A stretch of DNA of 64,000 bases from a virus. Below are positions 20,134 to 59,971 of this stretch, in pieces. Positions within the stretch are counted from its first letter, which is position 1; the number at the start of each line of letters is the position of its first letter. The position numbers and the translations under genes are program-made. Below the pieces are notes generated by a model. It did not search any database. It saw only the letters and a program-made list of their open reading frames with translations, and was not told the DNA's origin. Location of the stretch: the IMG/VR virus record IMGVR_UViG_3300036985_006248, positions 96,001 to 160,000 of that record. One strand, 5' to 3'.

Positions 20134-20841
20134 CTATACCACGTTAGTTTCTTCTTTCCAAATTTTTTTATTTATCAAAAGATAAATTGTGGTGCAAGAT
20201 ACATCATATTTTTTAGATAAAGATTTTGTTGTATTTCCTGATTCGTGTAATTGTCGTATTTCCCTAGCCTTACCCCAATCTAATTTAGACATAGGATTTA
20301 TTCTTTTTTTGGCTTTTTTTCTCATTAATTCTATAGTTTCGGCAGAGTGTTTTTTTCCATACATTGGATTCTTCTCGTTCTGTCTATTGCCTATAGCTTC
20401 TCTGATTTTTTGTTTGGTTGCATTCGTGAGCTTCTTGCCGTATGCCGGTGCGAGATGTCCCTTTTTTCCATACATCGGATTCCTCTCCCCAGAAACGTCT
20501 GCGTGATTTTCGCTTATTCTTTTTTTGGCATCTTCACTGTATTTAATGCCCAAAGTAGAACTCGCAATTTTACAGATGTTATATTCCGGCGTTAGAATGT
20601 CTAGAAAGTGCTGCTCTCTTAGTAACAAGCTATTGATATCAATTATTTCTTCTAGGACTTCGAATATAAAGTTTTCTTTTCCGTATTTGTCCCAAGCTCT
20701 TTGTAAATGATAATTACTATGGGTTTTGTTTTTTAATTCGCTAACGTGAGTAGAAAATCTATTTTTTATATCCACCGCGCTACCAATATAAAATTTACCA
20801 TTAATACGATTTGTTATTTTATAAATGCCAGATTTTTTCAT
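20134..20841 (-). mobile_element. Free-standing GIY-YIG homing endonuclease with NUMOD3 repeats
   Basis: SGIYKI...FYIGSA; repeated NPMYGKK motifs; C-terminal HTH. Confidence 0.88.
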
Positions 20842-22006: not shown

Positions 22007-22035
22007 AGTATAACAGATGCTTTTTGAAACATCAA
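22007..22035 (-). promoter_or_regulatory. Sigma70-type promoter
   Basis: TTGATG-17nt-TATACT with extended -10 TG. Confidence 0.7.
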
Positions 22036-22037
22036 TG

Positions 22038-22418
22038 CTAAACTTGGGTCTTTAAAACATCTTTTAAACCATTTACCGCTTTATCAACTACTTTTGAGCA
22101 CAGATCTAATTCCTGAGTATATTTGTACATGCCAGCTTGCATTGCTAGTAATTCCTGATTAGACATATTCTCTCTAGTTAATGAGGTCTTTAAAATGGAA
22201 TCAATCTTCATTGAACCTTTTTCCAAGGATGCAATAATTGAAGAAATGGTGCTTGAAATTTTTGAAGTTGATTCAATCTTGTTTACATGATGATTATCAT
22301 GTTGTTTATTGATTGTCACATCAAATTTACTTGGTGCTGTTTTTTCTAATTGTGGACGTGGATGTTCAACAACTTTTTGTAAGCCCGCTGCTGCTATGTT
22401 AGAAAGTGGACCCGCCAT
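22038..22418 (-). CDS. Type III secretion inner-rod-like protein (SctI/PrgJ/YscI/HrpB2-like)
   Basis: C-terminus SNQELLAMQAGMYKYTQELDLCSKVVDKAVNGLKDVLKTQV matches the SctI helical-hairpin pattern and recalled myxobacterial T3SS proteins. Confidence 0.72.
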   Translation of the reverse strand: MAGPLSNIAAAGLQKVVEHPRPQLEKTAPSKFDVTINKQHDNHHVNKIESTSKISSTISSIIASLEKGSMKIDSILKTSLTRENMSNQELLAMQAGMYKYTQELDLCSKVVDKAVNGLKDVLKTQV

Positions 22419-22419
22419 A

Positions 22420-22899
22420 TTATCTGATATTGCTAATGGAGTTTTTTGCTGTGTCGTGTTTTGTCTTTAAAACATTTGATATTGATGAAAACATTGTATT
22501 TTCACGCTGCATAGCCATTTGAACCTGTAGCATTTGTGAGTTCTGAGCTGACATGCTGGCTATATCAGTATTATACTGACCTATACCGCCTGTAGCTGCC
22601 CCAGCAATTAAGTTTGGACCGCTACCACTGCCAGAGCTACCATTTAATCCTACAACGCCTGTAGCGGCGTATGAAGCACCAGAAGTGCCCCCGACTAGAT
22701 TGTTAATCGATGACACTGCTGCTGAAATAACCGCTCCACCGGGTAATGCGCTTCCCAGCAATGCAGCGCCTTGTGATACGGCAGAAGCTCCAGAATATAA
22801 AGCATCATTGACCTTTTCACCAAAGTTTTTTCCCTGTGTTTGTTTTGGTAACGTTACGTTCATTGAGAGACGATTTGGCATACTGATTACATTACTCAT
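22420..22899 (-). CDS. Type III secretion needle/filament-subunit-like protein (SctF/PrgI-like C-terminus)
   Basis: Gly/Ala/Ser-rich body; C-terminus MLQVQMAMQRENTMFSSISNVLKTKHDTAKNSISNIR resembles PrgI SNTVKVFKDIDAAIIQNFR. Confidence 0.65.
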   Translation of the reverse strand: MSNVISMPNRLSMNVTLPKQTQGKNFGEKVNDALYSGASAVSQGAALLGSALPGGAVISAAVSSINNLVGGTSGASYAATGVVGLNGSSGSGSGPNLIAGAATGGIGQYNTDIASMSAQNSQMLQVQMAMQRENTMFSSISNVLKTKHDTAKNSISNIR

Positions 22900-22965
22900 A
22901 ACTGTTTCCTTTAAAAAAAAAGTACCTATAGTAATTATCGGAGAATCATTGAACTAGTTGCTTAA

Positions 22966-23422: not shown

Positions 23423-23628
23423 TAAAGAACCTTTACTTGCATATATTCGTATTCTTCTGCCTTAATAAATTCATCAAAAGAGTATGTTCTAACTTCTTCG
23501 GACTCGGTATCTAAATACGTAATATACGCATCCTTAAGAAAAGTCATCAGCTTTTTCTTATTTGAAAAATACCACTCTTCGGTAGATGGATAATGATAAA
23601 GTTTATAGATTTTCATTTGGCTGCTCAC
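23422..23628 (-). CDS. Hypothetical protein
   Basis: ORF coupled to neighbours. Confidence 0.5.
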   Translation of the reverse strand: MSSQMKIYKLYHYPSTEEWYFSNKKKLMTFLKDAYITYLDTESEEVRTYSFDEFIKAEEYEYMQVKVL

Positions 23629-24086
23629 GACGCGACCTCCGTGCGGAAGACCTCATTGTGCGCCCGCTTCCACGTTGAGCGGGAAGGCACCTCCTCCTCG
23701 GACTCACACACGAGGTCACGAAGCGCCTCCCGCGGCCGGTCAATCTCAGCCAGCAGCACCTCGATGGCGGACGCCATCTCCTTCGGAACCGGGTGGACGA
23801 AGCCTCGCACCTGCACCATTGCCTCGGGGTCGCTGTGCTTCTTCGGGAAACAGCCTTTCGTCGGGCAGTAGAAGCCGACAGAGCCACCGTCAACCTGCGC
23901 CGCACCGCACCGCTCGCAGCCACCATCAGCCGCATCAACCTCGGGAATGGCTGCGATTGCGTCGAGGTAGCCGTTCAGCTCGGCGTTCTTGGCCTCCAGT
24001 TCCGCGACGCGGGCTTGTAACGCCGTAACCCACGGTGTGCCGTCCAAGCAGTCTTCACATATGCAATCGCTAAAGTGTTTGCTCAT
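23625..24086 (-). CDS. Hypothetical Cys-rich protein on a high-GC segment
   Basis: CICEDC, CERC, CPTKGC; GC far above background. Confidence 0.6.
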   Translation of the reverse strand: MSKHFSDCICEDCLDGTPWVTALQARVAELEAKNAELNGYLDAIAAIPEVDAADGGCERCGAAQVDGGSVGFYCPTKGCFPKKHSDPEAMVQVRGFVHPVPKEMASAIEVLLAEIDRPREALRDLVCESEEEVPSRSTWKRAHNEVFRTEVAS

Positions 24087-58621: not shown

Positions 58622-59971
58622 TTATTTAATGCCCGCGAGGGCTTTTAGTCTTTCTGCCATAAGGTCGCTAATGCTGTTTGTGGCAGTCTTCTTTACTACA
58701 AAGGGCGATGCCGCTCTATTTAACGCTTCGCGGAGAGATTGAGGAGCTTCTTGCTCTTTCGTTGTATGCTCTACCGCATTTTGAACCGTCTCATAAATCG
58801 TTTTCGCCGCTAATACACTATCTGCTTTGGAAATAGATTCGACAATATTTTGTTTTTGTCGCTCATTCAAGGAGATATTACCTAATGCTTTATTAGTGTA
58901 TAAAAGTTTTGCATTTAAAACATTTATTTTTTCAAGTTGGTCTTTTAACATTGCTACTGCACTCAGTGCTTCGTTATTAAGACTTTTGAGATCTAGGTTT
59001 TCTTTTGTTAAATCAACCATTTTTTCTTTTTCGACTTTGCGTTCTTCGGTGGCTTTTTCATCACGGGCGGCGGCTAGCTCAACGTTGCGTTGTTCACGCT
59101 TTTGTGTTTCTGTTGAACCCATCCAACCATCGCTTTGGTTACCGACTTTTAAGTCTACTTTTAATTGTTCTTCTAATTCTTCTAATTCTTGTTCTGTTAA
59201 TTCAATATCTTCTGCAATTGCATCGGCAGAAGGAATTGGTGTAACGGCTTGCGTAGCAGCTTGTGCTTTTTCGTCTTCTTCTGCCGCTTTAGCTTTGGCG
59301 GTGTTAGCTCTTACTTCTCTATCGGCTGCTTGTTTTTTTAAGTCTGCGGCTTGTTTCATGTCTTCTACACCAGCAGAGGCTACATCAGTTTCTTGTAATT
59401 CGATTTCTTCTAATTCTAAGCTTTCTTCGAATTCCATTTCATCGCTGCCGCCCAGACCATCTTCTTCCAACTCCATTTCTTCTTCCACTTCTAGTTCGTC
59501 AACGGCAATTTTAGCGCCTTTGACTTTGACAACCACTGGAGATGCTTTTCCTTGTGCTAGAGCATCTGGGGTTGAATCTTGCCCAACCGCATCATATGAT
59601 TCTTCTGCTACACCAAGCATTTCATTTAGTGTGGCTTTTATTTGATCAAAGTTGATTGTAATTATTTCATCGTCGTCGCCAGAAAAAGCACCGGGAACTT
59701 TAGAAAAAGCCTTATCGGTTTGTGGCATGCCCCCACCTGTATCTGCCATTGGATCTGTCCCAGCGGCACTTAAATCAGGCGTGGTGGGAGGTATAGCGGC
59801 ACCGGCATCAGCAGGAGGCGTGACAACTTCTTCTTGCTCTAATAACTTTTGAACTGTTTGTTTAAATTCTTGTGAATACTTTTCAATCAAGGCATTTTCG
59901 GCATTTTTCATGGCTGCTTCTTTTAAAGCAGCGGCATCAATCATAGCCTGTTGTAACAAATCTGATGACAT
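58622..59971 (-). CDS. Prohead core/scaffold protein
   Basis: Very acidic coiled coil directly upstream of MCP; NAKLLYTN; ends RLKALAGIK. Confidence 0.75.
   Translation of the reverse strand: MSSDLLQQAMIDAAALKEAAMKNAENALIEKYSQEFKQTVQKLLEQEEVVTPPADAGAAIPPTTPDLSAAGTDPMADTGGGMPQTDKAFSKVPGAFSGDDDEIITINFDQIKATLNEMLGVAEESYDAVGQDSTPDALAQGKASPVVVKVKGAKIAVDELEVEEEMELEEDGLGGSDEMEFEESLELEEIELQETDVASAGVEDMKQAADLKKQAADREVRANTAKAKAAEEDEKAQAATQAVTPIPSADAIAEDIELTEQELEELEEQLKVDLKVGNQSDGWMGSTETQKREQRNVELAAARDEKATEERKVEKEKMVDLTKENLDLKSLNNEALSAVAMLKDQLEKINVLNAKLLYTNKALGNISLNERQKQNIVESISKADSVLAAKTIYETVQNAVEHTTKEQEAPQSLREALNRAASPFVVKKTATNSISDLMAERLKALAGIK

Follow-up and report, generated by a model that had tools for sequence, protein, structure and literature searches.

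The window analyzed here, a stretch of 64,000 nucleotides covering positions 96,001 to 160,000 of the IMG/VR virus record IMGVR_UViG_3300036985_006248, contains two adjacent phage genes that originate from a myxobacterial type III secretion system (T3SS). Gene A (22420..22899, minus strand) is an open reading frame (ORF) of 159 aa, the phage copy of the protein found in the sctF position of the myxobacterial 'T3SS*' locus. Gene B (22038..22418, minus strand) is an ORF of 126 aa whose product is a divergent protein resembling the inner rod subunit SctI. The pair is retained across the phages in which it was found, and the rest of the secretion machine is absent from the phage. The T3SS* has been described as lacking a secretin, a needle, and a translocon, and is needed, together with the Kil/Tad pilus, for prey lysis (PMC3459982, PMC10849154, PMC12075869). 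In the account favored here, which stands at about an even chance of being correct, A and B were captured from the T3SS* and would be exported by the T3SS* of the infected host, altering its rod or distal structure, and prey lysis, during infection.

Sequence searches returned 777 homologues of A and 130 of B, and those carrying names belong nearly all to metagenome-assembled genomes (MAGs) of Myxococcota, labelled Archangium or Myxococcaceae. Phage A is 55–67% identical to the Myxococcota locus copies over 96–100% of its length (E-values down to 1e-57). What phage B shares with the bacterial copies is the MAGPL motif at its N-terminus and its C-terminal part, which is at best about 73% identical. 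Homologues of both occur together in one type III locus of a Myxococcaceae MAG, and full-length A-B pairs turned up in no contigs other than those of Myxococcota and phages. A survey of 80 loci from species-representative genomes gave the order p96-A-TPR-p136-sigma70-B-SctJ-p460(FliG-like)-SctL-SctN-SctO-SctP(FliK-like)-SctQ in every Myxococcota locus reaching far enough (at least 45 loci, with Myxococcus xanthus, Hyalangium, and Vitiosangium among their sources), an order that parallels yscE-F-G-H-I-J-K-L and yscN-O-P-Q of Yersinia pCD1. The A orthologue thus sits in the bacterial sctF slot, after the small p96 gene, before the TPR gene and upstream of the sctI-like gene, in at least 45 loci. 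The B orthologue is directly upstream of sctJ in 40 of the 45 B-carrying Myxococcota loci, that is, in all whose contig extends there. Three genes separate A from B in the bacterial loci and none in the phage cassettes. The close resemblance to proteins of myxobacterial T3SS clusters that had been proposed from the sequence alone is borne out by these identities, by the constant positions, and by the finding that the Myxococcota matches lie in T3SS loci.

The source system is the 'needleless' T3SS* of M. xanthus (mxan_2434-2464), with the A/B locus conserved from M. xanthus to 'Archangium sp.' MAGs. The wording 'host injectisome' in the initial annotation is overstated, as the literature calls the myxobacterial system needleless and secretin-less. 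No needle component is listed for the T3SS* in that literature, and A is a conserved candidate. The T3SS* loci (L001:9582-20158; L009-L083) contain the conserved needle-slot gene A, the TPR gene, a SctP with a FliK domain, and a 460-aa protein with a FliG domain. Because the locus includes a length-control protein and a rod, its gene content suggests that the T3SS* builds some distal structure. A second, orphan copy of A, 61% identical to phage A, is present in an 'Archangium sp.' MAG (L024:10001-10507). No T3SS genes lie near it on its 400-kb contig, and the MAG has a normal locus as well (L020). One record titled Comamonas sp. KCTC 72670 (L072; 70% GC) holds a complete Myxococcus-type T3SS* locus with an A near-identical to those of Myxococcus spp., and is probably mislabelled or contaminated.

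Judged by its sequence, protein B is a divergent, SctI-like inner-rod homologue. It is so labelled, rather than as a curated family member, because its profile scores fall under the cut-offs: B matches Pfam PF17001 with an E-value of 7.6e-4 (20.3 bits, curated cut-off 32.4 bits) and the NCBIfam SctI model NF038054 with 1.8e-3 (18.4 bits, curated cut-off 39), in both cases aligning to the C-terminal end of the profile. Among members of the B family, 30 of 35 match PF17001, the best E-value (3.3e-5) still being under the cut-off. Canonical SctI and SctF alignments of five sequences each were built from annotated plasmid loci of Yersinia, Aeromonas, Photobacterium, Salmonella, and Providencia. 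With hhalign, the B family aligned to the five SctI sequences at E=4e-4 over the last 39 columns, to the final residue, versus E=0.44 for SctF. A hidden Markov model (HMM) of the B C-terminus scored 11.0 bits on AscI and 13.7 bits on Photobacterium SctI, both above all 10,000 shuffles, and in the same shuffle test gave no signal on YscI or two PrgJ-type sequences. The clusters nearest to B in a protein-language-model Atlas are T3SS_needle_F, SctI, and HrpB2. A profile search of the PDB with B returned ISY1 noise only, and the AlphaFold2 (AF2) monomer has low confidence, with a mean predicted local distance difference test score (pLDDT) of 64.

Like SctI proteins (YscI/LcrO, AscI, PrgJ, MxiI), B has a disordered N-terminus, a length in the range of ~110–130 aa, bacterial orthologues directly upstream of sctJ, and a C-terminal helix shared end to end (..MQ....T.E..L..K.....L..LLKTQ-like). 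It differs in coming from a phage without sctJ or any other T3SS gene, and in belonging to the deep-branching, secretin-less T3SS* of myxobacteria. The phage protein keeps the MAGPL motif and the C-terminal helix (residues 87–125) and has lost a Q/K-rich linker of ~45 aa that is present in the bacterial copies.

Protein A has a conserved N-terminus of ~35 aa and a Gly/Ala-rich hydrophobic core, with a KD19 maximum of 1.59 at residues 44–62. Its AF2 model contains helices at residues 26–51, 56–69, and 106–158, the last a 53-residue C-terminal helix, at low confidence (mean pLDDT 54). With 159 aa in the phage and about 170–200 aa in the bacterial copies, A does not have the form of the ~70–90-aa helix-turn-helix hairpin of SctF. 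The match to the Pfam needle family PF09392 is at E=0.17 (12.5 bits, under the 29.4 cut-off); 18 of 44 relatives of A give weak matches to this family, the best at 0.013, and the M. xanthus copy gives 0.0075. The A family aligned by hhalign to the five canonical SctF sequences at E=0.26, and in the shuffle test no score exceeded the shuffles. Nor did hhalign give a signal against YscF or YscI taken as single sequences, or between the A and B families. The only result of a PDB profile search with A was a chain of 43 residues from a needle/co-chaperone entry (E=0.053). Foldseek searches of the PDB with the A and B models gave nothing below E=1, and PHROGs has no family for either protein. The VIA-align wide search returned only generic long helices with Z scores of 5–6; the Shigella rod/needle entry 8axk_M (Z 5.3, root-mean-square deviation 1.6, 42 aligned residues, 21% identity) was set aside, being tied with dozens of unrelated coiled coils. 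A translocator or holin identity for A was likewise rejected, the hydropathy being only borderline, with one weak SctB2 match among 44 relatives.

The last ~20 residues of A align by eye, ungapped, with PrgI-type ends (SN..K...D....I.N.R). A predicted complex between the A C-terminus and the TPR neighbor of the bacterial loci scored 0.50, compared with 0.08 for the best control, with a partner pLDDT of at least 72 and at least 93% of contacts shared between runs. The mark applied to complex scores was reached by 58 of 80 solved complexes and two of 110 mismatched pairs, but those reaching it with a score of 0.60 or less were only seven of the 80, along with both mismatches. The support from this model is weak. 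The TPR neighbor matches generic TPR families, not YscG. What A has in common with SctF (YscF, PrgI, MxiH) and its YscE/YscG chaperones is the slot of its bacterial orthologues and the C-terminal ~20 residues; together with the TPR-binding model, at its weak support, these suggest a needle-like role. It departs from SctF in being about twice the size of a needle subunit (159–185 aa against ~80 aa), in its Gly/Ala-rich core, and in having no significant profile similarity. A is likely a secreted, helix-forming substrate. The initial description of an SctF/SctI-like pair is therefore upheld for B, by Pfam, NCBIfam, hhalign, the shuffle test, the Atlas, and the sctJ neighbor, and not for A, which fails all SctF profile tests.

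A tblastn search of the whole 174,280-bp genome, with 13 proteins of the myxobacterial T3SS* and 25 Ysc proteins of Yersinia as queries (among them SctN, R, S, T, U, V, C, and J, which are highly conserved), found no T3SS genes other than A and B. The lack of ATPase, export gate, and ring genes noted earlier for the window thus extends to the entire genome, and the phage holds only two of the more than 20 genes of the M. xanthus T3SS*.

The cassette was examined in six phage loci, and both genes are kept, and adjacent, in all six. L003, from another sample (35% GC), is a syntenic relative in which ThyX and neighboring genes are 68–75% identical and CHAP-A-B occupies the corresponding place. 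In L089/L090 and L091, A-B or CHAP-A-B runs on the other strand from the neighboring genes; these contigs have SLT and GH19 homologues in common with this phage. CHAP-A-B in L092 abuts a gene for a 1288-aa fibre or adhesin-like protein. The IMG/VR contigs L004/L005 are unrelated viral sequences of 45% GC, with DNA ligase and FtsH genes nearby, in which a longer A paralogue is followed by A and then B. The three genes lie in a row at L004:9293-11005, and the paralogue there, of 272 aa, combines a Gly-rich core with a C-terminus resembling that of A (..ISNVLKTMHD..IRNIR). Scans of IMG/VR with the family alignments gave nothing beyond L004/L005, and INPHARED contains no DNA relative of the phage. 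The cassette recurs in related low-GC phage contigs and in the unrelated L004/L005.

PG_binding_1+CHAP genes, 50–60% identical to one another, directly precede A-B in L003, L091, and L092. This linkage, along with the adhesin-like neighbor in L092 and the borderline hydrophobic Gly/Ala stretch of A, would fit co-option of the cassette by the phage, with the CHAP hydrolase and self-assembling helical A and B serving in lysis, DNA ejection, or the virion, independently of the T3SS*. That the M. xanthus T3SS* is itself required for prey lysis (PMC12075869) can be added to this side. Such a co-option is nonetheless unlikely. This phage and L089/L090 have no CHAP gene adjacent to the cassette, the separate SLT and GH19 candidates of this genome (G000) being 50 kb away, and the cassette sits among replication and small early-type genes, distant from the structural module at 2–57 kb. 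The N-terminal motifs of the secreted bacterial forms are strictly kept, which would be unexplained if T3SS export were irrelevant. Peptidoglycan hydrolases accompany rods in genuine T3SS loci too (iagB in one such locus), so the CHAP linkage does not discriminate between the readings. EtgA, for instance, binds the rod EscI.

A maximum-likelihood tree places the main phage copies of A within a clade of 'Archangium sp.' MAGs that is starred (96/89). Because of this nesting, the direction of transfer is read from the tree as running from myxobacteria to phages. The A of L004 joins a different Myxococcales branch, on long branches, and transfer probably happened more than once. Pairwise ratios of nonsynonymous to synonymous substitution (dN/dS) among phage copies are 0.07–0.25, with dS saturated, indicating purifying selection. 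GC content at third codon positions (GC3) is 0.33 for A and 0.25 for B, both typical for the phage. The phage-like composition and long retention proposed at the outset agree with this fully ameliorated GC3 and with the low dN/dS. The nested phylogeny, the phage-like composition, and selection in several phages mark the pair as auxiliary, host-derived phage genes. Linker segments have been lost from both proteins in the phages, conserved N-termini have been kept, and the last 50 residues of phage A equal the bacterial consensus.

The favored account would begin with capture of A and B from the T3SS* predation machine of Archangiaceae/Myxococcaceae myxobacteria by a large, low-GC phage lineage, which would have fused them into a compact, translationally coupled cassette held under purifying selection since. 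The proteins would be made while the phage infects a T3SS*-bearing myxobacterium, and their conserved N-termini, presumed to be secretion or chaperone signals, would be recognized by the export apparatus and chaperones of the host. Exported via the host T3SS*, they would then join or compete with the host rod and distal structure, and contact-dependent prey lysis, or exposure of the distal structure, would change during infection. Export and assembly are predicted because the conserved N-termini and near-consensus C-terminal helices are kept. We infer the identity of the host and export through its T3SS*; the effect itself may be to boost, block, or remodel the system.

The near-consensus assembly helices favor compatibility of the subunits, and the shared substitutions in B together with the lost linkers may leave room for a dominant-negative role. 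With the same host and route of export, the purpose could then be blockade, with A and B acting as dominant-negative caps that jam the rod or filament and so turn off predation, which is costly, or take away a surface structure used by other phages and thereby exclude superinfection. All main-clade phage B copies carry an E-to-D change in the C-terminal helix, and four of five a T-to-V/I change there, each at a position with at least 90% conservation among 45 bacterial copies; linkers have been lost from both A and B; and in other systems host pili are disabled by phage proteins, a general analogy. Blockade is nevertheless improbable, as the changes in B are few and conservative, the assembly helix of A is the consensus, and a single poison subunit would do, yet six of six phage loci keep both genes.

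Several points weigh against the favored account. A is a needle-slot protein by position, its kinship to SctF being unsupported by profile tests, and the T3SS* has been described without needle and secretin (PMC3459982, PMC10849154, PMC12075869). The phage is without the TPR and p96 neighbors of the bacterial loci and would depend on host chaperones. A phage-autonomous envelope function would also fit the CHAP hydrolase gene often present beside the cassette. Cassette-bearing phage contigs all have 35–45% GC, compared with 64–70% in most donor loci (one has 56%), and no spacer-like or prophage match to 20 kb of the phage was found in 151 donor-family genomes, this DNA search having matched nothing apart from A and B.

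With 38% GC in the phage and 64–70% in the donors, a myxobacterial host stands as a proposal. The matches of the phage DnaE are all below 31% identity and give no host clue. Of the 15 tRNAs encoded by the phage, nine have U34 anticodons for A-ending codons, including tRNA-Ile(UAU) and tRNA-Leu(UAA), a set we infer to be needed by a low-GC phage in a GC-rich cell. The genes lie outside the window, at G000:C1:80251-82814 and 59346-59416, with 14 in one cluster. Recent contact with GC-rich DNA is suggested by an ORF of high GC content that lies 0.7 kb upstream of A. In a crude test, Shine-Dalgarno motifs were enriched in the phage (46% versus 18% at control positions) and depleted in Flavobacterium loci (13% versus 32%). 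CRISPR-linked Myxococcota phages of 46–51% GC have been reported in a preprint (10.64898/2026.09.14.751636). The donor of the two genes was itself a myxobacterium, and a T3SS*-bearing myxobacterium is the most likely host.

The composition of the phage could alternatively point to a low-GC prey bacterium, for example of the Bacteroidota, in which the predator-derived A and B would shield the infected cell from myxobacterial contact-dependent lysis. The 35–45% GC of the phages matches Flavobacterium and Paludibacter loci (33–40%), not Myxococcota, and some A-bearing low-GC contigs are binned with Bacteroidales MAGs (L075, L084). Such shielding would also have a parallel in possible prey, whose chromosomes encode mosaic proteins displaying A and B peptides: mosaics with a signal peptide in Flavobacterium, Paludibacter, Thermomonas, and Lysobacter hold near-identical A and B segments. 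A phage of prey is, however, a doubtful explanation. Phage A and B are full-length and have no Sec signal, leaving no evident route to the machine of the predator; the mosaics copy bacterial-type residues (VEKATSGLKDTLKTQV, QGATFGEKV), not phage-type ones; and the restriction of full-length A-B pairs to Myxococcota and phage contigs makes the donor a myxobacterium. Unlike Flavobacterium, the phage uses Shine-Dalgarno motifs, and both its U34 tRNAs and the high-GC insert near the cassette speak for a cell rich in GC.

The mosaics are signal-peptide proteins of ~245–270 aa in cultured Flavobacterium species, Paludibacter, Thermomonas, Lysobacter, and other bacteria. Near-identical blocks of the A N-terminus, the A Gly/Ala core, the last 16 residues of B, and the last 17 residues of A are set between beta-like scaffold segments, and longer mosaics have outer-membrane-barrel-like N-terminal parts and KGWDG repeats. 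The KGWDG(S/T)(I/V)KG cassette was not found in the myxobacterial T3SS* loci examined. In Flavobacterium gawalongense (L047:9869-10597), the mosaic gene stands alone among housekeeping genes. Further mosaics are at L045, L050, L051, L054-L059, L061-L064, L066-L068, L070, L073, L077, L079, L080, and L085-L088, and among proteins P0199-P0240. The mosaics may be decoys or sensors against T3SS* attack by myxobacteria. It is tempting to speculate on a three-way arms race, in which A and B would be a self-sufficient pair of rod and distal filament, the 'needleless' T3SS* would in fact build a short A/B structure, phages would reprogram it during infection, and the mosaics of possible prey would serve as decoys. 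The pair would be self-sufficient because, out of more than 20 T3SS* genes, exactly these two were retained and fused by the phage; this wider scenario is possible, if unlikely.

The arrangement of the cassette in the phage genome is as the initial annotation gave it in most respects. The two ORFs exist 1 nt apart, with C-termini identical to those quoted there, and the junction (TAA-t-ATG, 22416..22422, minus strand) consists of the A stop, a single base, and the B start codon. Because B has no Shine-Dalgarno motif of its own, the junction sequence suggests that A and B are translationally coupled. The 66-nt intergenic leader upstream of A (22900..22965, minus strand) probably holds the start signals of the cassette: it has a T-run, and a weak Shine-Dalgarno motif (AGGA) sits ~10 nt ahead of the ATG. 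A promoter-like 9/12 match further upstream of A, at 23010-22983, is at chance level. Downstream of B, the site at 22007..22035 (minus strand; TTGATG-17-TATACT with TG) had been taken as a sigma70 promoter that bounds the pair as a unit of its own. It is a 9-of-12 consensus match only, and such matches number 10 in 3.1 kb versus 7.6 ± 3.2 expected from shuffles; being no commoner than in shuffled sequence, the site fails to show the pair as a bounded unit. The AT-rich accessory setting described at the start was recovered, the flanking genes being small AT-rich ORFs and the window having 35–43% GC.

The record of this large, uncultured phage is 174,280 bp in length, with 38% GC (IMG/VR), and is 96% complete according to CheckV. 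L110, an independent 3.5-kb contig from another sample, is collinear with it at 96.4% identity over both cassette junctions. A chimeric assembly of the A-B region, the contingency raised with the initial proposal, is excluded because this independent contig spans both junctions. That the pair might be an assembly artefact or a decaying, functionless passenger has nothing in its favor beyond the unusual gene content, and is extremely improbable given the collinear second assembly, the phage codon composition, the intact frames, and the low dN/dS across diverged phages.

Two neighboring ORFs and the surrounding base composition merit brief mention. A 153-aa orphan ORF at 23625-24086 (minus strand), the high-GC ORF upstream of A referred to above, has 63% GC and 76% GC3. 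Its relatives are confined to its own record and one 94-aa fragment, so that it is without an informative homologue; its composition suggests a recent insert from GC-rich DNA. A 235-aa GIY-YIG-like ORF at 20134-20841 (minus strand) lies between the DnaE gene and the block of small genes. The 96%-identical variant L110 diverges exactly at this ORF and has other genes in its place, a difference that suggests a mobile insertion carried by only some of the genomes. Five candidate host or prey genomes gave no match to the ORF downstream of B. Elsewhere in G000, stretches of 52–57% GC at 73.9–78.7 kb and 84–89 kb are without long ORFs.

Phages carry host-derived auxiliary genes, and SopE-type converting phages carry T3SS effectors. 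A and B resemble such moron genes in being host-derived, non-essential-looking phage genes that bear on a host secretion system. In SopE-type and other moron cargo, however, the products are secreted effectors or metabolic enzymes, whereas here they are structural, polymerizing parts of the machine. Structural, polymerizing subunits of a host secretion machine are not known as phage cargo, and no account of structural T3SS subunits in phages turned up in literature searches. The phage probably tampers with the predation apparatus of its host, an activity not described before for a phage. If A and B do enter the host T3SS*, bacterial predation, which is a trophic link in soil and freshwater, is open to rewiring by phages. 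The cassette can also be regarded as an evolutionary experiment in which phage selection retained only A and B together, and because only these two were kept together they are taken to work as a pair. The cassette so provides a concrete candidate for the distal part that is missing from the 'needleless' T3SS*, and the mosaics of possible prey, with their A and B peptides, suggest an unexplored defence against predation.

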